39,455 bases of DNA from Candidatus Binatia bacterium (GCA_036390135.1 DASWCL010000292.1:1-39455); one strand, 5' to 3'. Counted from the stretch's first letter, positions 14,379-37,650 are shown. Numbers and translations are program-made. Notes: generated by a model not told the origin, from the letters alone.

Positions 14379-15638
14379 TTAATTCGCCGGGCACTTGCCC
14401 GTCGTGAGGTGCGCTTCGAAATCGGCAGGGAAAAGCTTGATTGCGCTCTCGATCGGCGGGCCGGGCATGGCGATCAGATTACAAAAGCCTTTGCCCTTAT
14501 TGAAGGCGAGAATCTTACTGAACTGTTCCAGCATCGGCTGGCCGCCTTGTCCCGCCTGAACTTTTTTCAGCATCATGGTTAGCGTATTGGTCTCCATGCG
14601 GCAGGCCGGGCACTGACCGCAGGATTCCGTAGCGAAGAATTCCGAAATTTTTATTACTTCTTCGACGATACAGGTGCCTTCGGCGATGAACCGCATAACG
14701 CCGCACCCCAGCCCGGCGCCAGCGTCGCGCATTGAATTGTGATCCAACCGGGTGTCGATTTTTTCGGCTGGTAAAAACGCCGATGACGGCGCCGCCGGCA
14801 TGATCGCCTTGATCTTTTTATCGTCCTTCATGCCGCCGCCGCATTCTTCGATTAAATACCGTAGCGGCGTGCCGAAGGGCAGCTCATAAACGCCGGGGCG
14901 GTTGACGTCATCATTGAGCGAGAAAATCATCGTCCCGGTACTCTCGGCCGTACCAAATTTGCGGTACCAATCGGCGCCCTTTAACACGATCGGCGCGACG
15001 TTGGCTAAGGTCTCGACGTTATTGATCAATGTTGGTTTACCGAACAATCCGACCGTCACTGGAAATGGCGGCTTTTGCCGAGGCCAGGCCTTTTTGCCTT
15101 CGAGGACTTCAAGAACTGCAGTGTCCTCGCCGGCGACGTAGTTATGCGGGGCAGGAACGACTTCGATGTCCAGATTGAAACCGCCACCGAGAATATTTTC
15201 CCCGTAGTAGCCAGCACCTTTGGCTTCACTCAGGGCATCGTTGATGCTCTTTGTTGCGGCATCATACCGAGCATTGATGTAAAGATAAGCCTTGGTCGCG
15301 CCGATCGCGTAAGCGCCAAGGATGCTGCCTTCAAGCACCAGGTGAGGAAGATTCTCGAGAAGGACGCGGTCCTTTTTGCTGCCGGGCTCGTCTTCGCCGC
15401 CGTTCAATACCAGATAACGCGGCTGCTCCGGGGCTTCGCAGGTAAACTGCCATTTCTTTCCCGTCGGAAAGCCAGCACCGCCGCGACCACGGAGTCCCGC
15501 ATCTGCGACTCGCTGGATGAGCTCTTCGGGAGAAGCCTTAAGCGCTTTAGCTAACGCTTCATAGCCGCCGCGGGCGCGATACTCCTTCAACGCCTCTCTT
15601 CCCTCCGGGACACCGTGCGGGAAAAGGATACCGTCCAT
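14379..15638 (-). CDS. NuoF-like NAD(P)H-oxidising FMN/4Fe-4S flavoprotein (complex I 51-kDa subunit family)
   Basis: 419 aa. GLRGRGGAGFPTGKKW (FMN/NADH site), GEDTAVLE, ESCGQCPACR plus a distal GFCN Cys (N3-type 4Fe-4S). Start is 3 nt after the stop of the upstream ferredoxin gene. Confidence 0.9.
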   Translation of the reverse strand: MDGILFPHGVPEGREALKEYRARGGYEALAKALKASPEELIQRVADAGLRGRGGAGFPTGKKWQFTCEAPEQPRYLVLNGGEDEPGSKKDRVLLENLPHLVLEGSILGAYAIGATKAYLYINARYDAATKSINDALSEAKGAGYYGENILGGGFNLDIEVVPAPHNYVAGEDTAVLEVLEGKKAWPRQKPPFPVTVGLFGKPTLINNVETLANVAPIVLKGADWYRKFGTAESTGTMIFSLNDDVNRPGVYELPFGTPLRYLIEECGGGMKDDKKIKAIMPAAPSSAFLPAEKIDTRLDHNSMRDAGAGLGCGVMRFIAEGTCIVEEVIKISEFFATESCGQCPACRMETNTLTMMLKKVQAGQGGQPMLEQFSKILAFNKGKGFCNLIAMPGPPIESAIKLFPADFEAHLTTGKCPAN

Positions 15639-15641
15639 GGA

Positions 15642-15965
15642 TTAGAAGACCCCCGTGTCGAGAAGTTGGTAGATGAGTTCTTTCAGCGACGAATCGATGG
15701 TGTCCAACCGTTGGACATGGGGTCCGCCGGCAAGATGATCGATAATCTCGTCGAGGTCTTCGACCTTAACTTTTGCGTACCAGCTTTTCTCGGGATAGAG
15801 CACGATGTTTGGTCCTTCTTGGCAGGCGCCGAAGCACATATACGGTTTAACTTCGACATCGTTCAGCCCCTTGGCAGCAATTCTTTTCTCGAGCTCCGCC
15901 GTGAGTTGTTCCGAGCCGCGGGACTTGCAATCGATATTTTGACAAACTAGACAGACTCGACTCAC
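15642..15965 (-). CDS. Thioredoxin-like [2Fe-2S] ferredoxin (NuoE-like fold)
   Basis: 107 aa, GTG start with a strong AAGGAG RBS. Cys pattern C-x4-C (CQNIDC) ... C-x3-C (CFGAC), as in NuoE/HoxF-type 2Fe-2S domains. Confidence 0.8.
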   Translation of the reverse strand: MSRVCLVCQNIDCKSRGSEQLTAELEKRIAAKGLNDVEVKPYMCFGACQEGPNIVLYPEKSWYAKVKVEDLDEIIDHLAGGPHVQRLDTIDSSLKELIYQLLDTGVF

Positions 15966-16034
15966 TACTTTCTCCTTATTGCCGTACTTACTCGGCTATA
16001 AACGGAGTTGCAACAGGGCAGGCGTTTGGCCGGA

Positions 16035-17141
16035 TTAATTCAACTGTGTCTGTGCAACCCAGTCTTTACCTTCGATAATTTCAGCTAGCACCTTTTCGTC
16101 TTCCCCCGTCGGCAGAACTTCTTGCACATGTTTCTTATACGCTTCGGCAGTTAGCAATTCCCCCGTGACGCTGAAGGTCTTATCGACATGCTCACCGATG
16201 GAACGGTTGAACTTAAAATCGGGGGCATAGAGCTTCGGCTGTCCGTCGGGAACTAACTGATTGAGCTGACCGATGAGTTTGGCGCTCTCTGCCATATAGT
16301 GCGCCCGCGCCAAATCGTTGAGCTTGTCCTTCTCAGCGGGAACCGTCGCATCGTGCTCGTCGAATCGCCCCTTTAGTCCCCAGGTGTAAGCCCAGTGCGC
16401 GGAAGATGAGTGATCGGTTCCGAACAAGTCATAGGCGGTCGATAGCCACTTGTTAAAATATTTTTGCACGATGGGAATCGGGATTTTTCCGGCTCGGAGA
16501 ATGCGCGTCAGCCCCGTGTGGCCGGTAAACATATGAAAAAACTCTTCTTTCAACATAGCGGTTACACTCTCGGCTAAAGGCGCGAACGCCGAGTGGGATA
16601 GCATGGTTAGTTGATACTTACCGTCGCGATCGACAAATTCCGTGTAGGTAAAAAAGTCGAGCCAGTTATTAATCGGCGCATTGAACGAATCGAGCAGTCG
16701 ATCACCGCGAAAGGCACGGCGCTCCAAAAGCTTGCGTGCTTCCAATTTTCCTGAATCACCGAAATAATTAACCAGGAGATAGCACATCTGCCAACCATGG
16801 CGCATCTCCTCGCTATTGACTCGGGTGAGCGCTTGCCTGTCGTATTCGGTCGGGGCGGTATCGAGCAGGTTTTTTTGCTGTTCGACGGACGCAAACTCCG
16901 TATCACCTTGATAAACGATAAGATTCATCAAGGCATCGCGGATCGATTGGTTGGGAATTTGGGTCACTCGCTGCCACTTTGTTTGGCCTTTAAAATCACC
17001 AAATTCGATCTCGGGTGCGTGCAATTCGCCGAGCTTGGTTTCGAATTTATAGTTGCCCAGTAGCTGTGGGTCGTAACCGATGTCCTTTTGCCACTGGCGG
17101 AAGTATTCAATCCAATCGTCAAAGGTTGAAATCTTGATCAT
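16035..17141 (-). CDS. Diiron oxygenase of the PaaA/BoxB ferritin-like family (benzoyl-CoA 2,3-epoxidase subunit B-like)
   Basis: Trimmed to the ATG at 17141 (MIKISTFDDW; AAAGGAAA upstream). Motifs QGDTEFASVEQQ, NSEEMRHGW (ExxH), FVDRDGKYQ and LKEEFFHMF (ExxH) match my recollection of the six diiron ligand positions of BoxB. At 368 aa it is shorter than canonical BoxB. Confidence 0.75.
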   Translation of the reverse strand: MIKISTFDDWIEYFRQWQKDIGYDPQLLGNYKFETKLGELHAPEIEFGDFKGQTKWQRVTQIPNQSIRDALMNLIVYQGDTEFASVEQQKNLLDTAPTEYDRQALTRVNSEEMRHGWQMCYLLVNYFGDSGKLEARKLLERRAFRGDRLLDSFNAPINNWLDFFTYTEFVDRDGKYQLTMLSHSAFAPLAESVTAMLKEEFFHMFTGHTGLTRILRAGKIPIPIVQKYFNKWLSTAYDLFGTDHSSSAHWAYTWGLKGRFDEHDATVPAEKDKLNDLARAHYMAESAKLIGQLNQLVPDGQPKLYAPDFKFNRSIGEHVDKTFSVTGELLTAEAYKKHVQEVLPTGEDEKVLAEIIEGKDWVAQTQLN

Positions 17142-17156
17142 AGGGTTTCCTTTCAG

Positions 17157-17174
17157 TTCGAACGCTCGTTCGAA
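17157..17174. promoter_or_regulatory. Perfect 8+8 palindrome TTCGAACG-CT-CGTTCGAA; candidate operator
   Basis: Seen directly at 17157-17174, 16-33 nt upstream of the BoxB-like ATG and just downstream of a candidate -10 element. Confidence 0.45.
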
Positions 17175-17178
17175 TACT

Positions 17179-17207
17179 AATTTAACCCGTATGCCGTGCC
17201 AATTCAA
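17179..17207 (-). promoter_or_regulatory. Candidate sigma-70 promoter of the BoxB-like operon
   Basis: Minus strand: TTGAAT (17202-17207), a 17-nt spacer, then TAAATT (17179-17184). Lies in the 107-bp gap after the ptsP stop. Confidence 0.3.
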
Positions 17208-17248: not shown

Positions 17249-19648
17249 TTAGTGATACATCTCCAAGAGCTCGACCATGTCAAGCTGACGCATCTGTTCG
17301 AACAAATAGCGCTTAATTTCACCCACCGTGTCCATCTCGAGAACGATCTCTGCCGTCGCCTTCGCAGCTTGGTAGCTGATCGATCGAATCGCTTTCTTTA
17401 TGACGGGAATATAAAGAGAGCCTGTACTGAACTCTTCCAAACCCATTCCCAAGAGTAAAATTGCGCACAGCGGGTCGCCGGCCATCTCGCCGCACATGCC
17501 GACTCGCTTGCCTTCTCTCTTACCCGCGGTGATGGTTGCGTTCAGAGCGGACAACACCGCGGGATGCAAGGGCTCGTAGAGGTTTGCCACTTTTCGATTG
17601 CTGCGATCGACGGCGAGGATGTATTGAATCAGATCATTCGTTCCGATGCTCAGGAAATCCACCTCGCGCAAAAACCGCTCGGCAAGTTGAACCGCGGCAG
17701 GCACTTCGACCATAATCCCAAGCTCCATTTGCCGATCATAAGGAGTGCCCTCGTGATCAAGCTCGCTCTTAGCTTCGGTGAGAATTTCTTTGACTTTTTG
17801 AATTTCCTCGAGGCTCGTGACCATGGGAATTAGCAAGCGAACCCGGCCGAGTTCGCCGACCCGAAGAATGGCCCGCAGCTGGGTTTTAAAGATTTCCTCG
17901 ACTTCGAGCGAAATGCGAATTGAGCGCCAGCCCAAAAAAGGATTTGGCTCGATGGTCGCGCTGCGCATGTAAGTCGGATATTTATCCGCACCAATATCCA
18001 AAGTTCGGATCGTGACGGGCTTACCCACCATGCTCTCGACTACCCGGCTGTAAAGCGAATACTGCTCTTCTTCGCTGGGAAAATCCCGGTGCGACAGAAA
18101 CGGGATTTCAGTGCGGTAAAGGCCGATTCCCTGCGCGCCGTGAAGCTGGGCAAAGGCGACATCGCTTAACAAGCCGATATTTGCGTAAAGCGACACGCGC
18201 CGACCGTCGGTGGTTTCAGGAGGTAAATTTTTGAGCCCGCTGAGTTCGCGGTTCAACGCGGCATAATCCTTTTCCAGGCGATTATACTCGCGGGTCACTT
18301 CCGGGTTGGGGTTGACATGGACATTGCCCGCGTTGCCATCCACGATCAGCATATCGTCGTTATGGATGGAGTCCATGAGTCCTTCAATGGCGACCACGCT
18401 GGGAATCTCGAAAGACTTGGCGAGGATCGATGCGTGGGAAGTAACGCCGCCGGTCGCCAGCGCGATGCCTTTGAACTTGTCGCCCTCGAGCATGCTCAGA
18501 TCCGCCGGCGAGAGATCTTCGGCGACCAAGACCGCGTCGTCGGGAATATTATATTGTTGGCCCGCTGCGCCGGATAGGTTTTCCAAAAGCCTTTGCGCGG
18601 CGTCTTTGACATCGGTGGTTCGCTCGCGCAGGTAGTTATCCTCGAGGTTCGCGATCGATTGCAAATAGCGCTCGAAGACGACCTTAATCGCATAGTCGGC
18701 CGTATAGCCTTCTTTAAGAATTTGATTTTCGATCTGCTGGATGATTGTCGGATCTTCCAAGATGAGCCGGTAGACATCGAAGATCGCGTTTTCCTCCTTG
18801 GAGATCAGTTGATTCATGCGTGTCTTAACAACGTTGACCTGGTCGATGCCGCGCTCGACGGCGCCGCGAAAGCGTTCCATTTCACGCTGCCGATTTGTCG
18901 CTTTTTTCTTTTTGATTGCGCTCAAATCCATGCGCGGCTCCAAAACGAACGCACGGCCGCGACCGAAACCGGGCGACGCGGCCAAACCGTTCAAACGGCC
19001 GCGCCAGTGCAGTTTGGATTTCGCTGCTTTCTCGCGGCGATTGCCTTCGTAGGAGCGCAGCTTGCGCATGGCGTCGTTCATGCGCTTCTCAAAGTCCTTG
19101 CGCTCCTCTTCTTTACTCTTGAGGGATTCTGCGAGTCGGGCTTGGACGATGATACTTGCGGCTTGCGCAGAGATCGCCTTGAGCAGGCGGATTTCGTCGC
19201 GGGAAAATTCGCGCCGTCGCGAAGTCTGCACGACCAAAACGCCAAGAGGCAGTTTCCCTTCAATCAGCGGCACGCCGAGAAAAGAGTGAAAATGTTCTTC
19301 ATGGGTTTCCGGAAAATACTTGTAGCGCGGATGAGCGAGCGTGTCGGCGACCATTACCGGCCGCATTCTCTCAATGACTAACCCGGTGAGACCTTCGCTG
19401 GTGCCCATCGAGACTTTGTCGACGGATTCAGGGTCCAATCCTCTGGTTGCGCGCAGCGTCAGGCGGTTTTTTTTTCGGTCGAGAATGTAGATGGAACAAA
19501 CTTCAGTCTGCACTCGGTCCACCACGGTGGCGACGATCCGATCGAGGGTTTCTTGGAGGTCGTGAGAATGACTGATGAGGGTGCTGATATCCTCAAGGAT
19601 GTCGAGGTGCGGCGGACTGTTGCGGGTATTTGTTTTTATTTTTGCCAT
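17249..19648 (-). CDS. ptsP: Phosphoenolpyruvate-protein phosphotransferase with N-terminal GAF domain (EI-Ntr)
   Basis: 799 aa. N-terminal GAF-like region, phosphohistidine motif GGVTSHASILAKSFEIPSV, PEP-utilising TIM barrel with IGTNDLIQY and GMCGEMAG. Confidence 0.9.
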   Translation of the reverse strand: MAKIKTNTRNSPPHLDILEDISTLISHSHDLQETLDRIVATVVDRVQTEVCSIYILDRKKNRLTLRATRGLDPESVDKVSMGTSEGLTGLVIERMRPVMVADTLAHPRYKYFPETHEEHFHSFLGVPLIEGKLPLGVLVVQTSRRREFSRDEIRLLKAISAQAASIIVQARLAESLKSKEEERKDFEKRMNDAMRKLRSYEGNRREKAAKSKLHWRGRLNGLAASPGFGRGRAFVLEPRMDLSAIKKKKATNRQREMERFRGAVERGIDQVNVVKTRMNQLISKEENAIFDVYRLILEDPTIIQQIENQILKEGYTADYAIKVVFERYLQSIANLEDNYLRERTTDVKDAAQRLLENLSGAAGQQYNIPDDAVLVAEDLSPADLSMLEGDKFKGIALATGGVTSHASILAKSFEIPSVVAIEGLMDSIHNDDMLIVDGNAGNVHVNPNPEVTREYNRLEKDYAALNRELSGLKNLPPETTDGRRVSLYANIGLLSDVAFAQLHGAQGIGLYRTEIPFLSHRDFPSEEEQYSLYSRVVESMVGKPVTIRTLDIGADKYPTYMRSATIEPNPFLGWRSIRISLEVEEIFKTQLRAILRVGELGRVRLLIPMVTSLEEIQKVKEILTEAKSELDHEGTPYDRQMELGIMVEVPAAVQLAERFLREVDFLSIGTNDLIQYILAVDRSNRKVANLYEPLHPAVLSALNATITAGKREGKRVGMCGEMAGDPLCAILLLGMGLEEFSTGSLYIPVIKKAIRSISYQAAKATAEIVLEMDTVGEIKRYLFEQMRQLDMVELLEMYH

Positions 19649-19724: not shown

Positions 19725-20786
19725 CTACTGCGGAAGCGATTGCAAGGTGCGATGATGCCGGCTAAACGGCATTTGCGCGAAAGTAAAGCGCCCGGGAATG
19801 ACTTCGCCACAAGAGCAGCGATCGCCGTTCATGCGCTTTTCGATGATCTCGTGCCACGAACGACGGATCAGCGCGCGCCGGCATGCCGGACAATAGGTTG
19901 TTTGTCCTTCATCGTGATGAACATTGCCGACGTAGCAAAATTTGATGCCGCATGATTTAGCGATTGCCCGTGCTCGCGTCAGCGTCACGGCCGGTGTTCG
20001 GGGTTTATCGATGAGCTTAAAGTCGGGATGAAATGCCGTAAAGTGCAGCGGCACCGCGTCACCGAGATTTTCCACAACCCAATCGCAAAGCCGCTTGGTC
20101 TCGTCGGCATCGTCATTCTCACCGGGAATCATTAAATTGGTGATCTCGAACCAGATTTCGGTTTCATGTTTCAACCACTTGAGCGTGTCGAGCACCGGAT
20201 CGAGGTGCGAAAAAGTGAGCTTGTGATAAAAACGTTCCGTGAACGCTTTGAGGTCGACGTTGGCGGCATCGATATGGCGAAAGACTTCCGGACGAGCTTC
20301 AGGCGTGATGTAACCCGCCGTCACCATCACGCTATTCAGACCCGTTTGCCGCGCCAGCCGGGATATATCGATAACGAACTCGCCCCAAATCACCGGATCG
20401 TTGTAAGTGAAAGCAAGGCTCGGCACTTTGTGCTTTAGCGCAAGCTCAACCACCTTTTCTGGAGATGCCTGAAGACTCTGCGCGTCGTCGAGTTTTGCCT
20501 TGCTGATGCTCCAGTTCTGACAGAAGCGGCAGCCCAAGTTGCAGCCGGCGGTGCCAAAGCTCAGGATTTCGCTCCCAGGGAGAAAGTGATTGAGCGGTTT
20601 TTTCTCGATGGGATCGATGGCGAAGCCTGTCGAAGCGCCATAGCCAAGCGAATAAAGCTTACCGCCGACATTTTTCCGGATATAGCAGAAACCGGCTTGG
20701 CCGTCGCCGATGCGGCACAAACGCGGGCAAAGTGTGCAGAGGAGCTTGCCGTCAGCCTCGGCATGCCACCACAGGGCTTCTTTCAT
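19725..20786 (-). CDS. AmmeMemoRadiSam-system-type radical SAM enzyme
   Basis: Trimmed to the ATG at 20786 (MKEALWWHAE..GKLLCTLCPRLC). CxxxCxxC cluster in GCNLGCRFCQNW, plus a C-terminal Cys-rich tail (YCPACRR...CSCG) typical of this subfamily. Confidence 0.8.
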   Translation of the reverse strand: MKEALWWHAEADGKLLCTLCPRLCRIGDGQAGFCYIRKNVGGKLYSLGYGASTGFAIDPIEKKPLNHFLPGSEILSFGTAGCNLGCRFCQNWSISKAKLDDAQSLQASPEKVVELALKHKVPSLAFTYNDPVIWGEFVIDISRLARQTGLNSVMVTAGYITPEARPEVFRHIDAANVDLKAFTERFYHKLTFSHLDPVLDTLKWLKHETEIWFEITNLMIPGENDDADETKRLCDWVVENLGDAVPLHFTAFHPDFKLIDKPRTPAVTLTRARAIAKSCGIKFCYVGNVHHDEGQTTYCPACRRALIRRSWHEIIEKRMNGDRCSCGEVIPGRFTFAQMPFSRHHRTLQSLPQ

Positions 20787-20864
20787 GAAAGAAAATATCC
20801 CGCTTTTGAGGCGAAGTGGCAAGGGTTGAGAATCCGTCGCCGGGTCCGCATTTTTTTGATGTTG

Positions 20865-20873
20865 TGTTATAGT
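20865..20873 (+). promoter_or_regulatory. Candidate extended -10 promoter (TGtTATAGT)
   Basis: TG at 20865-20866 and TATAGT at 20868-20873, only 7 nt before the ATG at 20881. There is no SD sequence in between. Confidence 0.3.
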
Positions 20874-20880
20874 CAAAACC

Positions 20881-21291
20881 ATGGGTCGAATTGCCGGACT
20901 CAAGGGCATGCGCCACATCGCCCTCAAAGTTAAAGATGTGGCGCGGTCAAAAAACTTTTACCAGGAAATTCTCGGGATGGATGTAGTCTGGGAGCCCGAC
21001 CCGCAAAACGTCTATCTTTCTTCCGGCTGCGACAACATCGCGATCCACGGCGTTTCTGCGAATTTCACGAGCGACGCTGAGGAGAGGCAACTGGATCATT
21101 TGGGCTTCGTGGTTGAAAGCATCGCCCGCGTGAAAGAGCTGGAACAGGAGTTCGTTGCCAAAGGCGTGCGGATCGTTCACCCGTTCAAGATTCATCGCGA
21201 CGGCAGCGCGTCATTTTACTGCACCGATCCCGACGGCATCGTCATCCAAATGCTTTACGAGCCGCAGTTGAGCCAGCAGACGATCACATGA
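20881..21291 (+). CDS. VOC (glyoxalase/bleomycin resistance/dioxygenase) family protein
   Basis: 136 aa. MRHIALKVKDVARSKNFYQEILGM and HLGFVVE blocks are typical of the paired beta-alpha-beta-beta-beta fold. Alternative ATG at 20908. Confidence 0.8.
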   Translation: MGRIAGLKGMRHIALKVKDVARSKNFYQEILGMDVVWEPDPQNVYLSSGCDNIAIHGVSANFTSDAEERQLDHLGFVVESIARVKELEQEFVAKGVRIVHPFKIHRDGSASFYCTDPDGIVIQMLYEPQLSQQTIT

Positions 21292-25280: not shown

Positions 25281-27485
25281 TCAAACCATCGCCGCCTTCA
25301 CCCGTTCCGGCGTGAATGGCACGGTGCGCAGACGCGTGCCGGTGGCGTTATAAATGGAGTTGGCGATGGCAGCGGGGATGGCGCTTGTCGTCGCTTCGCC
25401 GGCACCGACCGCGGGCTGATCCGGGCGGTTGATGAGTTCTACAATGACATCGGGGATTTCGGGAAACTTGAGGATCGGATAGAGAGTCCAATCGAGACTC
25501 GTCACCATCGCGCGGTCAAACTTCACTTCTTCTTTCAATGCGCGGCTGGTCGCTTGGATAACGTTGCCTTCGATCTGGTTTCTCAGTCCGTCGGGATTGA
25601 TGATCAGTCCGCAATCGTGCGCGACGATCACGCGTTTCACCCGCACTTGGCCGTCGGCAGGGTTCACTTCGACATCGGCTATCGCCGCGACATAAGCTTC
25701 CGTGCGGTCATAGCGCACAAACGCTACGCCGCGTCCGCTCTTTACTGCTGCCGCTGAAGACTGAGGCCGATTCGACCAATCGGCGCGTTTGGCCGCAGCT
25801 TCCAATACCGCTTTGGCGCGGGGATCGCCGAGATGGCGCAGGCGAAATTCCACCGGGTCGGCGCCGGCCGCAATGGCCAATTCATCCATGAACGATTCAT
25901 TGGCGAAAGTATTTTGCGGCGAGCCAAGACCGCGCAACGCGGAAGCGCGCAGCGGACTCGATTGTAACCAGTGCACCATCACCCGGTTGTTTTTAAAATT
26001 GTAGGTGTGATCGGCGTTGCGATCGGCGCCCGACTGATTCGGTGTTCCCGGCGACATATTTGTGAGCAAACCGGCGAGTAGGCTGCCGGCGCTGCCGTTG
26101 GGTCGGCTCGAATGCGTTGGTGTCCAGCCGTGGAAGTCCCATGCCACCACGTTGCCCTGCTGGTCCAAACCGCCGCGCACCTCCATGACCATCGCCGGCC
26201 CGAGCGGCTCCCAAGCGTGCTCATCGTAGCGCATCCACTGCACGCGCACGGGTTTGGCCACGGCTTGTGAGAGCAGCGCGGCATCGGCAGCCGCATCATC
26301 CGCGCCATTGTGTCCGTAGCAGCCGGCGGCCTCGACATAAACAACTCGAACATTGGCCGGAGAAACTCCGATCAATTGCGCGATCGTCGGACGTAGCTGA
26401 TGGGCTCCCTGGGTTGCCGACCAGATCGTTGCCTCGCTGCCTTTCACATCGGCGACCGCGCACGATGGCCCCATGGAGGCATGCAGCTGATACGGCCAAC
26501 GGTAAGTTGCCTGAAAAGTTTTAGCTGCGGCTGAAAGCGCCGCCTCGACGTCGCCGGTATTGGCCGGCGGCTTGTCGTTGCTCGGGATTTTTTTCAGCGC
26601 ATCGAATAGCTCGTTCATGGGTGGCAGCGTTTGCTCGCTCTTCCAAGTGATTTTGAGCTCGCGGGCGGCGCGAATCGCCTGCTCTTCGCGCTCGCACACG
26701 ATGCCGACAAAGGCGTCTTTGACGACGATTTTCACCACACCGGCAATTTCTTTGATCGAAGCTTCGTCGACGCTGGTTAATTTGCCGCCGACCGAAGACG
26801 GCCGGATCACCCGACCGTGAAGCATTCCCGGTAGACGCAAATTCTGCAGGTAGAGGTGTTCACCGCTAATCTTCGCAGGAATATCGACGCGCGGCACCGC
26901 TTGACCGACGAGTTTGTATTCGCTGGGGGTTTTCGGTTTGACCTTGCCGGTGATCTCACGATTGAACGCCATGCCGCCGAGCAACTCGGCGAAGCTTATT
27001 TTTTTCTTGGCGTCGTCGTGGGCGATGATCATGCTATGGGCGACGCGCAGCGATTCGGCCGGCACAGATAATCGGCTCGCCGCCAGCGATAACAGCGTCG
27101 CCTTGGCTTCGGCAGCAGCTTGACGCAGTTGGCTGCCGCCGCGCTTGATCGTCTGGCTGCCGAACGTGGGCGCCTGATCGACGGTGTTGGCGGTGTCGCC
27201 TTGAATCCAATTAATTTTCTCAAAGGGATGATCGAGCTCCTCGGCGACGATCTGGCGCAGAGAGGTGGACACGCCGGTGCCCAGCTCGACTTTGCCGGTC
27301 ATCACGGTGACCATGCCGTCTTTCTGAATAATGAGCCATGAATCGAGTTGGTTCGGCGGCAGCGGCCCGCCGGAAGCTCGCAACGCCGGCGCCCCTTGTG
27401 CTTCCGCATCGAGCGGAAAGCCGAAGGCGACAATCAGGGCTCCGGTTGCCTTAAGAAATTGTCGGCGGGTGACATTGAGGCTCAT
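25281..27485 (-). CDS. Xanthine dehydrogenase/aldehyde oxidase family molybdopterin-binding subunit (IorB-like), Tat-exported
   Basis: Trimmed to the ATG at 27485. Twin-arginine signal MSLNVTRRQFLKATGALIVAFGFPLDAEA. The 734-aa length and overall pattern are typical of isoquinoline oxidoreductase beta-like subunits. Confidence 0.85.
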   Translation of the reverse strand: MSLNVTRRQFLKATGALIVAFGFPLDAEAQGAPALRASGGPLPPNQLDSWLIIQKDGMVTVMTGKVELGTGVSTSLRQIVAEELDHPFEKINWIQGDTANTVDQAPTFGSQTIKRGGSQLRQAAAEAKATLLSLAASRLSVPAESLRVAHSMIIAHDDAKKKISFAELLGGMAFNREITGKVKPKTPSEYKLVGQAVPRVDIPAKISGEHLYLQNLRLPGMLHGRVIRPSSVGGKLTSVDEASIKEIAGVVKIVVKDAFVGIVCEREEQAIRAARELKITWKSEQTLPPMNELFDALKKIPSNDKPPANTGDVEAALSAAAKTFQATYRWPYQLHASMGPSCAVADVKGSEATIWSATQGAHQLRPTIAQLIGVSPANVRVVYVEAAGCYGHNGADDAAADAALLSQAVAKPVRVQWMRYDEHAWEPLGPAMVMEVRGGLDQQGNVVAWDFHGWTPTHSSRPNGSAGSLLAGLLTNMSPGTPNQSGADRNADHTYNFKNNRVMVHWLQSSPLRASALRGLGSPQNTFANESFMDELAIAAGADPVEFRLRHLGDPRAKAVLEAAAKRADWSNRPQSSAAAVKSGRGVAFVRYDRTEAYVAAIADVEVNPADGQVRVKRVIVAHDCGLIINPDGLRNQIEGNVIQATSRALKEEVKFDRAMVTSLDWTLYPILKFPEIPDVIVELINRPDQPAVGAGEATTSAIPAAIANSIYNATGTRLRTVPFTPERVKAAMV

Positions 27486-27532
27486 GTGACGATCCGTCGC
27501 TCTCGTAGGATTCGATTGCACACGGCGCACAA

Positions 27533-28549
27533 TCATCGTCTCGCTCTTTCGGCGAACGTCCAGTCGTAAACGACCTGCGGTTTGACGCTGATCTTTTCTT
27601 TCGCGCGAAACGTGCCCACGGCGACCCATTCTTCGGCCACGGAGTCCGGCACCGTTAGGTCCGGATTATATTGGTCGCGGTAAACCGAGTAGAATCTTTC
27701 AGCAGCAGAATGGTCGAGTTGAAGGAGTTTCTCCAGTAGGCTGACGCCGATTTCCCGTTGGCCTTGCAGAAACAACATCGCTGCGCGCTGGCCGCGCAGC
27801 ACCCGCACGATCTCATCCGGTTCCTTGTCGATCTTTCGCTGTGTCGTGCTCAGGCCGGCAATGGGAATACGGACAAATTCCGCGGTCTCTTTTACGGATA
27901 GGAGGGTCTTGAATCCCTTCTGTTCGGCTCGATATTCGAAAGGGCTGCTGACGACGGTGGCTTCGACGGCGCCGGCGACGAGAGCCGCAAAGCGCGCGTC
28001 AGGGCTACCGGCGATGGCTTGCAGCGTGACATCTTTGTTCGGATCAAGACCATTGCGGCTGAGCAATTGATAAATCGCGAAATCGGCGGAGCTGCCGAAT
28101 GTGTTGATCGCGATCCTTTTCCCTTTCAGTGCTTTGACACTGTCGATTTCCGGTCGGGAAATAATCGCGTAGCCGCTTGACTTGGTGCTTGCGCCGACGA
28201 TCTTTACCGGTAGCCCGCGCGTGGCAGCGCCCGCGATGAAGGGCAAGATCGTAACGTAATCAAGCTCGTTTGCCATCAGGGCACTCAGCATCAAATTAGT
28301 ACCTTGAAACTGAATGTAACGAACCCGAAGTCCCTCCTTTTCGAAGAAGCCGCGTTCACTCGCGATTCGATCCGGCAGCGCGGTCCAAGCCGAGCCGCCG
28401 GTCCAGCCTATATTGATCGCTTTCGGCTCAGCGCCGTTGATGGCGGCAGCTTGACCGATCATTAGAACGAAGAATGAGACAAATGTGACGAAGCGCCGGC
28501 TCACTTTCGAAGCTCTTTTTCTTTTTTCGCTCTCACCCTGCCACCGCAA
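27533..28549 (-). CDS. ABC-type substrate-binding protein, NMT1/THI5-like
   Basis: 338 aa as tracked, overlapping the upstream gene by 17 bp. An alternative GTG at 28504 would begin VSRRFVTFVSFFVLMIGQAAA (signal peptide). The LKGKRIAINTFGSSADF block is typical of COG0715 SBPs. Confidence 0.75.
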   Translation of the reverse strand: MRWQGESEKRKRASKVSRRFVTFVSFFVLMIGQAAAINGAEPKAINIGWTGGSAWTALPDRIASERGFFEKEGLRVRYIQFQGTNLMLSALMANELDYVTILPFIAGAATRGLPVKIVGASTKSSGYAIISRPEIDSVKALKGKRIAINTFGSSADFAIYQLLSRNGLDPNKDVTLQAIAGSPDARFAALVAGAVEATVVSSPFEYRAEQKGFKTLLSVKETAEFVRIPIAGLSTTQRKIDKEPDEIVRVLRGQRAAMLFLQGQREIGVSLLEKLLQLDHSAAERFYSVYRDQYNPDLTVPDSVAEEWVAVGTFRAKEKISVKPQVVYDWTFAERARR

Positions 28550-32571: not shown

Positions 32572-34992
32572 ATGAAAATGCCGGCTGAAGCGTCTGACTC
32601 TTCTAAAGCATTGACCGGCTTGCGCGTCCTGGATCTCACCGGACGCATGGGCGGCTACTGCGGTTTGCTGCTTGCCAATCTCGGCGCAGACGTGATTCTG
32701 ATCGAGCCGCCTGCAGGTGACCCGATGCGCCGTGAGGGACCGTTCAAAAACGACCGCCCCGACCCCGAAGGAAGTTTATCCTTTGCGGCATACCATGCCA
32801 ACAAGAGTGGCATCGTCTTAAACCTGGAGAATGATGAAAATCGGGAAAGCTTGCGGCAACTCGCACGTCGTGCGGACGTGCTCGTTGAAGACAAGCCGGC
32901 GGGTTACCTCGATCGGCTCGGCCTAGGCTACCGCGCGCTGCAATCGCTCAATCCCGGCTTGGTGATGACTTCGATCACCGGCTTCGGCCAATCCGGCCCC
33001 TATCGTGATTTTAAAGCTCCTAACATTGTTGCCTTTGCGATGGGCGGTTTGATGAACCTGTGCGGACATCCGGGCCGGCCGCCGCTAATGGGGCCGTGCG
33101 ATGTAGCGTACCATTTAGGTTCCGTGCACGCTGCCTTCGGCACTCTCGTAGCGCTGTTTAACCGGCGCAGCTCGGGGCGCGGCGAGCATGTCGACGTGTC
33201 GCTTCAGGACGTATTGGTTGCCGATCCGTTTCTGCGGATCATCACGCGTTACAGCGTGACCGGCGAGGTCCCTGAGCGCACCGGCCATAGTCAATCGACC
33301 ACCGTGGCGGAAACCTATCAATGCAAGGATGGTTACGCGCGCGTCTTCGTCAATCAGACCGACCACTGGACGCGATTTGTGGATTGGCTTGGCCGCCCGC
33401 CGGAATTGCTTGACCCGAAATATGAAAATGTGCAGAACCGATTTCCCTTGCGTCCAACCATCGATCGGCTGATGGAAGCGCGCACGCTCAACTACGAATG
33501 CAAAAGGTTTTTCGAAGAGTTTCAGTCGCTGCGTTTGGCCGCCGCGCCGATCAATCCGCCGAGCGCCTTTCTCGCCGACGAACAGACACAGCACCGAAAC
33601 TTTCTGACCCATGTCGAGCACGCCTATTTGGGCCGCCACGGATTTCCCGGCGACCCATATAACCTTTCCGAGAGTCCGTGGCGCGTCGAGCGAGGGGCGC
33701 CGCTGTTGGCCGAACATCAACAGCAGATCGGTGAGCAATTGACCGGCCCGTCATCCTGGTTGGCAGAGTCGCAGCGTGGCGGGGCATCGTTGGTTCCCGA
33801 CAGAAGTCTCTTCGAAGGGATTCGCGTGGTCAGCTTTCCCACCGGTATCGTCGGGCCCGCGCTGGCCGGCTTGCTTGCCGAACACGGGGCGGAAGTTATC
33901 TCGATCGAACCAGGTCGGGCGGTTCGCAGCCCGCAGCGCGGACAGAAATTTCAAACTGCCGCTGATCTGGAAAGCAATCGCGACCGTAAACGGATCGCCG
34001 TGGATATGAAACATCCGGAGGGCGTCGCGCTGGTGAAACGGCTTATCGCCAAATCCGATGTCGTTGCGGAAAATTTTAGCGCCCGCGTCATGGCGAGCTG
34101 GGGACTGGATTATCCACGCGTGAAAGAAATTCGCCAGGATATCGTTATGGCCAGCCTGCAGGCGTTCGGCCAGACGGGCCCCCGGCGTGATTACGTCAGC
34201 TTCGGCCCGATTCTCATGTCTTACTCGGGCATGGCGTATCTTTGGCGCGATCCGGAAAGCGAGCGGCCAGGCGCAGGCTGCCAGACGGCATTCCCCGATT
34301 ATGTCGCGCCGTCATACGGAGCGTTGGCGATCCTCGCCGCGCTGCATTATCGCGCGCGCACCGGCAAAGGGCAGTACGTCGATATTTCTCAGGCGGAAAC
34401 CGCAGCAGCGATGATCGGACCCGCCTATTTGGAATTGCTCGTGAACGGCCGCGAACCGCAGCCACAGGGTAACTTTAGCACGACTGCTGCGCCCCATGGC
34501 TGCTATCGCTGCAAAGGCGACGACCGCTGGTGCGTCATCGCCATCCAATCCCAGGAAGAATGGATCCGCTTCTGCGAGTTCGCCGGACATCGCGAGTGGC
34601 TGACCGATCATCGGTTTTCCGAGCCGAGTGCGCGGATTGCCTATCGGCAGGAGCTCGACTACTGGATCGAAAAGTGGACCGCCAAGTACACGCCGCACCA
34701 GGTGATGGTGATGTTGCAGCGCGCCGGCATCGCTGCGGGCGTCGTGCAAACGGCCGAGGATCTTTACCGTGATCCGCATCTGCGCGAGCGCGGCTTCGCG
34801 CGCGAAGTCTTCCATCCGCAACTCGGTTGGGTTACGCGCGTCGGACCATCGGTGCAGTTGGCCGAAAGTAAATTTCTGCCGCGCGGCGACGCTCATGTCG
34901 CCGGCCAAGACAACGAAACGGTGCTCGGCAAGATCCTCGGCATGTCGAGCGTGGAGATACGCGATCTTGTCGAGCGCCAGGTACTCAAGTAG
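32572..34992 (+). CDS. Tandem-fused double family III (CaiB/BaiF) CoA-transferase
   Basis: 806 aa with two complete family III domains. N-terminal signatures are LRVLDLTGRMGGYCGLLLANLGADVILIEP (domain 1) and IRVVSFPTGIVGPALAGLLAEHGAEVISIEP (domain 2, from about residue 410). A candidate catalytic Asp is present in each (GPCDVAYHLG; AFPDYVAPSYG). The start may be the second ATG at 32578. Confidence 0.85.
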   Translation: MKMPAEASDSSKALTGLRVLDLTGRMGGYCGLLLANLGADVILIEPPAGDPMRREGPFKNDRPDPEGSLSFAAYHANKSGIVLNLENDENRESLRQLARRADVLVEDKPAGYLDRLGLGYRALQSLNPGLVMTSITGFGQSGPYRDFKAPNIVAFAMGGLMNLCGHPGRPPLMGPCDVAYHLGSVHAAFGTLVALFNRRSSGRGEHVDVSLQDVLVADPFLRIITRYSVTGEVPERTGHSQSTTVAETYQCKDGYARVFVNQTDHWTRFVDWLGRPPELLDPKYENVQNRFPLRPTIDRLMEARTLNYECKRFFEEFQSLRLAAAPINPPSAFLADEQTQHRNFLTHVEHAYLGRHGFPGDPYNLSESPWRVERGAPLLAEHQQQIGEQLTGPSSWLAESQRGGASLVPDRSLFEGIRVVSFPTGIVGPALAGLLAEHGAEVISIEPGRAVRSPQRGQKFQTAADLESNRDRKRIAVDMKHPEGVALVKRLIAKSDVVAENFSARVMASWGLDYPRVKEIRQDIVMASLQAFGQTGPRRDYVSFGPILMSYSGMAYLWRDPESERPGAGCQTAFPDYVAPSYGALAILAALHYRARTGKGQYVDISQAETAAAMIGPAYLELLVNGREPQPQGNFSTTAAPHGCYRCKGDDRWCVIAIQSQEEWIRFCEFAGHREWLTDHRFSEPSARIAYRQELDYWIEKWTAKYTPHQVMVMLQRAGIAAGVVQTAEDLYRDPHLRERGFAREVFHPQLGWVTRVGPSVQLAESKFLPRGDAHVAGQDNETVLGKILGMSSVEIRDLVERQVLK

Positions 34993-36837: not shown

Positions 36838-37650
36838 CTATTTCCGATCTTCCGGTTTCACGTACTTTACCGTTCCGCCGCCTTTTTGCGAGTGGAGATA
36901 ACCTTCCACGTCGTTGAGCGGGTTGGTGTAGTAACGCAGGCGGTGCTGCACGAGATCGTCGGTGCGCAGCGCCATGTCGAAGGGCAAGTCTTTCTGCATG
37001 TAGGCGGCGATCTTGGCGTTCTCCAAGGTCGCGCCGTTGCGGCTGGCGAGCTCTTTTGCCAGCGTGTCGACGTAGCTATCGAGGTCTTTCTCCGCCACGA
37101 CATCGGAAACCAAACCGATCCGCTCCGCTTCGACGCCAGTTAAGTTTCTACCGGTGAGGGAAATGAAGAAAGCCTTCTTGAACGGAATGCCGGCATGAAA
37201 GAGCGATGGTGTCGCTGTGGCACCGTAGCTGCCTCGGATAATCTCGGGCATGCCGAACTTTGCCGTTTCGGTGCTGATCACCAAGTCGTGGCCATTGATT
37301 AAAGCGAGTCCGCCGCCGAGACACCAGCCGCGCACTTTGGCAACGGTGACTTGTGGGAGCTTGCGCATGATGTCGACGATTTCAGCGACGCCGCCGAAGC
37401 CGCGGGTGCGGCGGCGATTATCTTGCCCGCGCATGTCGTAGAGATCGCGGCCGGAAGAGTAAGAATCGCCTGCGCCGGCGGTGACGATGCAGCGAATTTG
37501 ATCATTTTCGGCGAGGGAGCGCAGGAGACTCGACAGTTCGGCGAGCAAGACGATGCTCAGCGCGTTTTTCTTTTCGGGGCGGCTGAGCGTTAGCCAGGCG
37601 ATGCCTGCGTTTTCGTCGATGTTGGCGTTGATGAGTTTGGTATCCGACAT
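36838..37650 (-). CDS. Enoyl-CoA hydratase/isomerase (crotonase) family protein
   Basis: 270 aa. LSRPEKKNAL, GAGDSYSSGRDL and GWCLGGGLAL...FGMPEIIRGSYG are typical crotonase oxyanion-hole and catalytic segments. GGAG RBS. Confidence 0.85.
   Translation of the reverse strand: MSDTKLINANIDENAGIAWLTLSRPEKKNALSIVLLAELSSLLRSLAENDQIRCIVTAGAGDSYSSGRDLYDMRGQDNRRRTRGFGGVAEIVDIMRKLPQVTVAKVRGWCLGGGLALINGHDLVISTETAKFGMPEIIRGSYGATATPSLFHAGIPFKKAFFISLTGRNLTGVEAERIGLVSDVVAEKDLDSYVDTLAKELASRNGATLENAKIAAYMQKDLPFDMALRTDDLVQHRLRYYTNPLNDVEGYLHSQKGGGTVKYVKPEDRK

Follow-up and report, generated by a model that had tools for sequence, protein, structure and literature searches.

The window analysed here is a stretch of 39,455 nucleotides from Candidatus Binatia bacterium (GCA_036390135.1 DASWCL010000292.1:1-39455). 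On its minus strand, from position 17141 down to 14379, it carries three tightly linked genes, here called the trio, which encode a diiron protein related to BoxB (a 2,3-epoxidase acting on benzoyl-CoA), a thioredoxin-like ferredoxin and a flavoprotein with the domains of NuoF. The features of the locus are as follows, given in amino acids (aa) for the gene products.

17141..16035, minus strand: short-form BoxB-like diiron oxygenase gene, ATG start, 368 aa; proposed catalytic component
15965..15642, minus strand: thioredoxin-like [2Fe-2S] ferredoxin gene, GTG start after AAGGAGA, 107 aa; would shuttle electrons to the diiron site
15638..14379, minus strand: gene for a NuoF/HydB-core-like NAD(P)H dehydrogenase with flavin mononucleotide (FMN) and a [4Fe-4S] cluster, 419 aa; proposed reductase
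17174..17202, minus strand: candidate sigma-70-like promoter, TTGGCA-17-TAGTAT, ~33 bp upstream of the start codon of the BoxB-like gene; consensus scan only, weak evidence

These coordinates, with spacers of 69 bp between the oxygenase and ferredoxin genes and of 3 bp between the ferredoxin and flavoprotein genes, agree with those given in an earlier note on this DNA. The consensus scan, again as weak evidence, revealed no terminator-like site on the minus strand inside the three genes. A TTG codon further upstream, at 17207, is unlikely to be the start of the BoxB-like gene, since a length of exactly 368 aa is shared by more than 100 clusters of homologues. In total, more than 5400 homologues of the oxygenase were scored, most of them of exactly this length; the genes are real and strongly conserved rather than chance open reading frames (ORFs). 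The earlier note had also stated that boxA, boxC and a benzoate-CoA ligase gene do not flank the oxygenase. This extends to the whole window, as a boxA-, boxC- or CoA-ligase-like gene is absent from all of its 39 kb. Likewise, hydrogenase and formate dehydrogenase genes are absent from the vicinity of the trio, and nuo genes from the window.

Fold and active site of the BoxB-like oxygenase

The 368-aa protein matches the Pfam family PaaA_PaaC, and its closest sequence match in the PDB is BoxB (E 7e-52). Against the BoxB model (NCBIfam TIGR03225) its score was 235.4 bits, from two stretches that together span positions 85-322 of the model, compared with an equivalog cut-off of 499.1 bits. Genuine BoxB representatives (P0154 and P0160) reached 672 and 908 bits with the same model, and six representatives of the short form scored 100-234 bits. 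The PaaA model (TIGR02156) yielded 39 bits against a cut-off of 280. Canonical BoxB as family assignment is ruled out by the equivalog score and by length, for which a full-length architecture of ~470 aa was applied beside the bit-score cut-off; a BoxA encoded elsewhere in the genome is conceivable. The hidden Markov model comparison proposed in the earlier note therefore places the protein outside the characterised BoxB clade. As judged from its sequence, the oxygenase is a trimmed BoxB with a near-BoxB active site; it lies outside the curated equivalog, in a distinct short-form family whose members have 365-385 aa.

The diiron site is conserved. The four motifs quoted in the earlier note are all present, GDTEFASVEQQ at residues 79-89, EEMRH at 111-115, DRDGKYQ at 171-177 and EEFFH at 199-203. 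The diiron ligand set of BoxB comprises Glu120, Glu150, His153, Asp211, Glu240 and His243 (PMC5489048), and an alignment to PDB 3PER pairs these with E82, E112, H115, D171, E200 and H203, respectively, so that all six positions predicted in the note are retained. In BoxB, the benzoyl ring is reported to be oriented by the second-shell residues Gln116, Thr119, Ser123, Phe193, Phe203, Phe206 and Thr210 (PMC5489048). The first five of these seven are identical in the window protein (Q78, T81, S85, F153 and F163). The protein is ~104 residues shorter than BoxB, close to the 100 or so estimated before, and the difference is made up by four deletions, which remove ~42 N-terminal residues, 16 residues behind the EEFFH helix, ~25 behind GLKGR and ~21 C-terminal residues.

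An AlphaFold2 model of the oxygenase, built from a 40-sequence alignment, reached a mean per-residue confidence (pLDDT) of 93.3 and a predicted template modelling score (pTM) of 0.90. A Foldseek search of the PDB with this model returned BoxB chains as all of the top 11 matches, with query-normalised template modelling scores (TM-scores) of 0.87-0.89. The best match was 3PM5, which is BoxB with benzoyl-CoA, at 0.89, compared with 0.56 for PaaA and 0.52 for SSO1313. Thus, the predicted diiron ligands align with those of BoxB in sequence, and the model as a whole superposes on the BoxB fold.

The short-form family is large. At 50% identity, 963 homologue clusters reached E <=0.001, and the oxygenase had at least 588 genome hits, of which the 80 listed all stem from metagenome-assembled genomes (MAGs). 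The taxa of the genome hits include Binatia, Acidobacteriota, Zixibacteria, Eisenbacteria, Gemmatimonadaceae, Rokubacteria and others. In one 367-aa BoxB-like member of the short form (P0158), four of the six diiron ligands are replaced (E120H, E150N, H153S and D211N); judging from these substitutions, it may be a PaaC-like non-catalytic paralogue.

The ferredoxin and flavoprotein pair

The earlier note had described the second and third products as a NuoE-like ferredoxin and a NuoF-like flavoprotein. The description of the flavoprotein stood: it contains the Pfam domains Complex1_51K, SLBB and NADH_4Fe-4S, and an alignment that included Aquifex NuoF showed that it retains the glycine-rich FMN loop RGRGGAGFPTGKKW, the nucleotide-site motifs and the four [4Fe-4S] cysteines (ESCGQCPAC...FC). 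With the NuoF model (TIGR01959) it scored 430.4 bits against a cut-off of 558.65, and among proteins of known structure it is closest in sequence to NfnB (9n5u), Aquifex NuoF and HydB-type subunits.

The ferredoxin is not a NuoE. It is matched by the Pfam family 2Fe-2S_thioredx over the C-terminal half of the model only (positions 68-144) and by the NuoE model (TIGR01958) over positions 73-147 only, with 36.3 bits against a cut-off of 142.4. Its cysteines Cys8, Cys13, Cys44 and Cys48 form a C-x4-C...C-x3-C pattern, and its orthologues share the C-terminal motif IYQLLDxGxF. In the PDB it matched best to HydB, within the N-terminal domain of that chain (residues 8-92 of 7q4v_B, E 1.6e-12), and to Aquifex Fd4; the NuoE and HydC chains matched weakly (E 0.0045-0.0078). 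The N-terminal helical domain of NuoE is absent. Since both model cut-offs failed, this domain is missing and no nuo genes are nearby, a true NuoE and NuoF pair or a fragment of complex I was rejected.

The two proteins are collinear with a single HydB-type chain. Residues 5-87 of the ferredoxin correspond to residues 8-92 of HydB, and residues 15-418 of the flavoprotein to residues 129-535 of HydB and 129-531 of NfnB. The C-terminal domain with two [4Fe-4S] clusters is absent, as the flavoprotein is 419 aa long compared with 597-630 aa in HydB-type chains, and Pfam detected no Fer4 domain in it. Neither a HydC/NuoE-type nor a HydA/NuoG-type partner gene was found in the locus. A related arrangement is described for BamH of class II benzoyl-CoA reductase, in which a thioredoxin-like [2Fe-2S] domain, an FMN core and a [4Fe-4S] bundle are followed by a C-terminal ferredoxin domain, whose clusters serve as acceptors for external reduced ferredoxin (bioRxiv 10.64898/2026.04.10.717634). 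Judging from these alignments, the pair is best described as a split HydB/NfnB/BamH-type subunit without its bifurcation-linked parts, and the label 'NuoE + NuoF' would be only approximately right. As the C-terminal ferredoxin domain is missing, the pair would be a simple, non-bifurcating dehydrogenase. It may have arisen from a HydB/NfnB/BamH-type subunit that was split after its N-terminal thioredoxin-like domain and lost the C-terminal one.

Linkage of the trio and its proposed function

To follow the trio in related genomes, three contigs fetched by look-up (L001-L003) and the best 80 of at least 588 genome loci by oxygenase similarity (L004-L083) were compared. The closest relatives (L001-L022), with oxygenases 71-95% identical to that of the window, stem from Binatia-type MAGs under various labels and are monophyletic. 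All 22 encode the ferredoxin, and the flavoprotein is present in each of the 21 with enough contig, the two genes being 0-9 bp apart in most of them; the genome set (L004-L022) accounts for 19 and 18 of these loci, respectively, and L001-L003 for the rest. The flanks of the trio differ between subgroups. One subgroup has PtsP on the upstream side, while genes for a deacetylase-fold protein, an alpha/beta hydrolase and several solute-binding proteins follow the trio; in another, TctC/TctA and a luciferase-like gene precede the trio and a Leu/Phe-tRNA transferase gene follows it. As the trio is retained while the flanks vary, the trio and not the neighbourhood is the conserved unit. In the closest genome relative (L022:8001-9105, 94% identity), the BoxB-like gene is broken into two ORFs, probably through a frameshift from long-read assembly rather than as a pseudogene. 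In addition, MAG SMAG_U13352 contains a trio-type copy 83% identical to the window protein (L009, DATMBL010000361) and a second short-form copy of 60% identity without partners (L045, DATMBL010000223), which is either real paralogy or bin contamination.

A metagenome scan seeded with the ferredoxin returned 80 loci. Of these, 44 extend far enough upstream to be informative. In 41 of the 44, the gene directly preceding the ferredoxin gene is a short-form BoxB gene, and two further loci (L149 and L164) bring the number with an adjoining BoxB/PaaA-family gene to 43. Where enough downstream sequence was available, the flavoprotein follows the ferredoxin in 29 of 43 loci. The scan revealed a deeply diverged, Acidobacteria-type trio clade, in which the oxygenase is 60-63%, the ferredoxin 57-63% and the flavoprotein 54-57% identical to the respective window protein. 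Here the trio is part of a packed operon with gaps of 2-13 bp (L157 and L169), in the order aldehyde dehydrogenase, aldehyde dehydrogenase, crotonase, short BoxB, ferredoxin, NuoF-like flavoprotein and glyoxalase-like protein. This operon was confirmed on the gene calls of two NCBI MAG assemblies, one of them labelled Acidobacteria, and its crotonase is an ordinary one of 260 aa. A divergently oriented regulator upstream combines an XRE-type helix-turn-helix with a shikimate-kinase-like domain and scored 283 bits against the model 'anaerobic benzoate catabolism transcriptional regulator' (cut-off 204). In BzdR, the prototype of this family, the kinase-like domain binds benzoyl-CoA as inducer (PMC3602430), and BoxR, the regulator of the aerobic box genes, has the same architecture (PMC10803450). 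A third clade (L036 and L089-L108) likewise carries a BzdR/BoxR-like regulator on the minus strand, directly upstream of a short BoxB gene and a ferredoxin gene. The linkage of the trio thus holds in two deep clades, and ferredoxin and flavoprotein proved co-conserved, as the earlier note had demanded, in all close relatives and in the diverged clade, though not across the whole short-form family (see below).

At L149 (Ga0070741_10003658) and L164:4509-10374 (Ga0070738_10000038), the ferredoxin and NuoF-like genes are flanked by two small PaaA_PaaC-family proteins of 252 and 260 aa, with genes for a crotonase and a CoA transferase alongside. The arrangement hints at a second, different diiron oxygenase that the module serves.

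Based on motifs, fold and this linkage, we consider it likely that the trio encodes a three-component, NAD(P)H-dependent oxygenase, most likely a putative aryl-CoA epoxidase, in which the ferredoxin and the flavoprotein replace BoxA. This is in essence the three-component oxygenase with a complex-I-type input module that the earlier note had envisaged, and the conserved linkage supports it; the checks named in the note as able to refute the idea were run, and none did so. From gene context and homology we infer in which direction and order electrons move, which nucleotide is used and what the substrate and product are. The flavoprotein would accept a hydride from NAD(P)H onto FMN and pass single electrons via its [4Fe-4S] cluster to the [2Fe-2S] cluster of the ferredoxin, which would in turn reduce the diiron centre. 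The BoxB-like protein would then activate O2 and oxygenate, most likely epoxidise, an aromatic acyl-CoA close to benzoyl-CoA. Being tightly coupled to the oxygenase, the ferredoxin is probably its direct electron donor; the flavoprotein is the usual, yet not the universal, reductase of the ferredoxin.

Several observations weigh against this reading. The first concern the linkage itself. The metagenome set is biased by its ferredoxin seed, and the loci of the third clade have no NuoF-like gene within up to 8 kb. In the 61 remaining genome loci, with oxygenases of 57-64% identity, no flavoprotein gene was found nearby (0/61), and the ferredoxin only twice (2/61). The most divergent short-form clades (P0135/P0272, P0125/P0275 and P0297) consist of orphan genes, with neither reductase nor CoA-enzyme genes nearby. 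Conversely, two loci of one organism (L121 and L122:2939-8244) show, as a variant of the Binatia-type context, TctA and TctC on the minus strand and, ~200 bp on, the ferredoxin and NuoF-like genes, but no BoxB-like gene. A neighbour-joining tree built from 128 short-form BoxB sequences speaks in favour of the reading: every oxygenase gene linked to a ferredoxin gene belongs to one clade of 73, and none of the 55 sequences outside has a ferredoxin or NuoF-like gene nearby; the tree is without support values, and its basal branches are very short. The patchy presence of the module does not refute the model, but shows it to be an accessory that was gained inside the short-form family and does not define it.

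One may therefore ask whether the adjacency is functional at all. The oxygenase could use a BoxA-like or general reductase encoded elsewhere, and the ferredoxin and flavoprotein could form a stand-alone NADH dehydrogenase or serve another enzyme. That most short-form genes have no adjacent reductase fits such a view, as do the two loci in which the pair occurs without the oxygenase. Moreover, BoxA acts only transiently and sub-stoichiometrically on BoxB (PMC4498308), which speaks for a reductase encoded at a distance and equally makes the replacement of the reductase plausible. However, the trio is kept while both flanks change, and over ~40% sequence divergence in a packed operon; the ferredoxin stands beside a BoxB/PaaA-family gene in nearly all informative loci; and a hydrogenase, formate dehydrogenase or nuo gene that the pair might otherwise serve is not nearby. 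We thus regard a non-functional adjacency as very unlikely.

Further points concern the substrate. In the window protein, Phe206 of the BoxB pocket is replaced by Tyr and Thr210 by Val, and both positions are changed throughout the short-form family (the latter to Val or Ile). Thr210 has been assigned a role in the regio- and stereoselectivity of BoxB. With two of seven pocket residues changed, Thr210 included, the substrate may not be benzoyl-CoA itself. In addition, genes for a crotonase, an aldehyde dehydrogenase, a CoA ligase and a BzdR-like regulator are all missing from the neighbourhood of the trio, and a search for pathway genes across the window found neither a box-type crotonase nor an aldehyde dehydrogenase, a 3-hydroxyacyl-CoA dehydrogenase, a CoA ligase or a BzdR-like regulator. 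The sole ECH-family gene of the window, at 36838-37650, lies 20 kb from the trio, and its product, at 20-27% identity to the clade-specific crotonases, is unrelated to them. The pathway context thus comes from a related clade and not from the window.

The same electron chain could hence drive other chemistry on another substrate, be it a different acyl-CoA (substituted benzoyl-, heteroaryl- or non-aromatic) or a compound that is not a CoA ester, and might act in biosynthesis or housekeeping rather than in benzoate catabolism. The two pocket substitutions and the trimming by 104 residues would leave room for a different aryl- or acyl-CoA. The contexts of the 61 distant loci are varied as well. 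The commonest has the order TetR, crotonase, aldehyde dehydrogenase, UDG-like gene (not always present), crotonase and oxygenase, followed by a CoA transferase, by a 3-hydroxyacyl-CoA dehydrogenase, or by a molybdenum enzyme of the xanthine dehydrogenase family together with an amidohydrolase; the molybdenum enzyme, amidohydrolase and CoA transferase suggest other ring substrates. A second context is housekeeping-like (FabH, DUF5777 and MutY), many family members are single genes beside MutY, FabH or MgtE, and the two copies in MAG SMAG_U13352, if true paralogues, would fit this view as well. On the other hand, five of the seven pocket residues and the Gln116-Glu120 pair are identical to BoxB, a BzdR/BoxR-type regulator adjoins the gene in two related clades, and crotonases, which occur near the oxygenase in 34 of those 61 loci as well as in the diverged clade with the trio, point to CoA-thioester ring chemistry. 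One of the distant-locus crotonases scored best as 'enoyl-CoA hydratase family protein' (237 bits), with oxepin-CoA hydrolase of the alternative type (230) and PaaG (217) among its top models. BoxA- or BoxC-type genes were found in none of the related loci examined. We consider a different substrate or chemistry rather unlikely. Pocket, regulator type and the linkage to crotonase and aldehyde dehydrogenase genes point to benzoyl-CoA or a close analogue, which is most likely the substrate as far as homology can tell.

Finally, the trio might not oxygenate a substrate but act as an NAD(P)H:O2 or H2O2 oxidoreductase, with its diiron protein working like rubrerythrin as an oxidase or peroxidase, or else removing oxygen from epoxides. 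Reduction of O2 or peroxide is within reach of diiron ferritin-like proteins, BoxB itself has been suggested to have a side activity as deoxygenase (PMC5489048), and the window trio is not flanked by pathway genes. The conserved substrate-pocket residues speak against this, and crotonase, aldehyde dehydrogenases and a benzoyl-CoA-type regulator in the related clades argue for a CoA ester as substrate; a Pfam scan found no rubredoxin-like domain. We give this option hardly any weight and retain the three-component aryl-CoA epoxidase as the preferred reading.

Comparison with known systems and surroundings of the trio

The proposed system is most similar to BoxAB of Azoarcus/Aromatoleum evansii (3PER, 3PM5), with which it shares the BoxB fold, the six diiron ligands and five of the seven benzoyl-pocket residues. 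BoxB is a monomer without a structural partner subunit, and correspondingly no PaaB/PaaC-like gene adjoins the window gene. Like the box genes, the short-form gene is linked in related clades to a crotonase-family enzyme, to aldehyde dehydrogenases and to a BoxR/BzdR-type regulator. It differs in that BoxA, an NADPH-specific protein with flavin adenine dinucleotide (FAD) and two [4Fe-4S] clusters, is replaced by the thioredoxin-like [2Fe-2S] ferredoxin and the FMN/[4Fe-4S] NuoF-like flavoprotein, and in that the linked crotonase of the diverged clade is of ordinary size. BoxC is larger than an ordinary crotonase, with ~550 aa.

The phenylacetyl-CoA 1,2-epoxidase PaaABC(D)E belongs to the same ferritin-like diiron superfamily (PaaA_PaaC) and also combines an acyl-CoA epoxidase with subsequent crotonase-family and aldehyde dehydrogenase steps. 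Unlike the trio, it needs the structural subunits PaaB and PaaC and the FNR-type reductase PaaE, none of which is present at the window locus. With SSO1313 (PDB 4MUD), the second-best match to the oxygenase in sequence and structure (2.5e-19), the similarity is restricted to the helical core; this 235-aa protein is functionally uncharacterised.

For the reductase side, HydB, NfnB and BamH from bifurcating hydrogenases, NfnABC and class II benzoyl-CoA reductase share an N-terminal thioredoxin-like domain, an FMN/NAD(H) core and a [4Fe-4S] helical bundle with the pair, which in contrast is divided over two proteins, lacks the C-terminal domain with two [4Fe-4S] clusters and neighbours an O2-dependent diiron protein. 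NuoE and NuoF of complex I are alike in the FMN and NADH motifs, the SLBB domain, the N3-type [4Fe-4S] site and the thioredoxin-like [2Fe-2S] site with its C-x4-C...C-x3-C spacing; they differ in family-level scores, in the helical domain of NuoE and in their operon, as described above. In its proposed logic, the trio resembles multicomponent monooxygenases such as toluene-4-monooxygenase, in which electrons pass from an NAD(P)H flavoprotein via a small [2Fe-2S] carrier to a carboxylate-bridged diiron oxygenase. Those systems employ FNR-type reductases, Rieske or plant-type ferredoxins, multi-subunit hydroxylases and an effector protein, all of which are absent here.

Directly upstream of the trio lies a gene for a GAF-domain enzyme I of the PtsP/EI-Ntr type (17249-19648, minus strand; 615 bits against a cut-off of 583), preceded by an AmmeMemoRadiSam-system radical SAM enzyme (19725-20927, minus strand; 503 bits). 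Downstream, genes for a solute-binding protein, a PuuE-like deacetylase-fold protein and an alpha/beta hydrolase follow. Both the PtsP gene and these downstream genes are retained next to the trio in the closest subclade only, and PDB searches with the downstream proteins gave no functional lead.

The trio is contained in a ~20 kb run of co-directional genes on the minus strand (797-20927). This run includes at least seven 'orphan' genes for periplasmic solute-binding proteins (SBP_bac_6/8/11 and NMT1) with no adjoining permease or ATPase genes, interspersed with genes for amidohydrolases, a PrpD-like protein, an arylmalonate-decarboxylase-like protein and an epimerase. Elsewhere in the window, an 806-aa protein with two family III CoA-transferase domains is encoded at 32572-34992 on the plus strand. 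A 782-aa molybdopterin-binding subunit of the xanthine dehydrogenase family is encoded at 25281-27629 on the minus strand, with no adjoining genes for FAD or [2Fe-2S] subunits among the annotated ORFs.

Full-text literature searches yielded no published account in which a thioredoxin-like ferredoxin and a flavoprotein of the NuoF/HydB type are paired with a BoxB/PaaA-type oxygenase, and nothing relevant on Binatia or Binatota together with boxB or on Acidobacteria together with boxB. As far as the searched literature goes, a NuoF/HydB-type reductase class is unreported for any oxygenase. New here are the proposed reductase class and the trimmed oxygenase; the aerobic, CoA-dependent epoxidase strategy is already known, and the system does not represent a new principle. 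If the proposed function is true, the known reductase classes of diiron oxygenases would be extended by one that combines a flavoprotein of the NuoF/HydB type with a thioredoxin-like ferredoxin, and an input module of hydrogenases and complex I would be re-used in aerobic chemistry. With 368 aa, the oxygenase would also be a compact starting scaffold for the study or engineering of CoA-ester epoxidases.

The system is widespread in uncultured soil bacteria. In public databases, the oxygenase is labelled 'benzoyl-CoA 2,3-epoxidase subunit B' or 'phenylacetic acid catabolic protein', and its partners '(2Fe-2S) ferredoxin' and 'NADH-quinone oxidoreductase subunit F'. Given these labels and the size of the short-form family in soil metagenomes, marker counts for boxB, or for nuoF of complex I, may mix in this system. 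The phyla concerned are abundant in soil, and their turnover of aromatic carbon is known almost only from gene counts. The trio offers a candidate for an aromatic-degradation pathway in uncultured soil phyla. Put most broadly, there is in our view about an even chance that uncultured soil bacteria, among them Binatia, Acidobacteriota and others, run a 'short box' version of aerobic benzoyl-CoA-type dearomatisation, with a trimmed BoxB, a dedicated thioredoxin-like ferredoxin and a HydB-derived NuoF-type flavoprotein, and that the same module also serves a small PaaA/PaaC-type oxygenase as a general electron input for acyl-CoA diiron enzymes.

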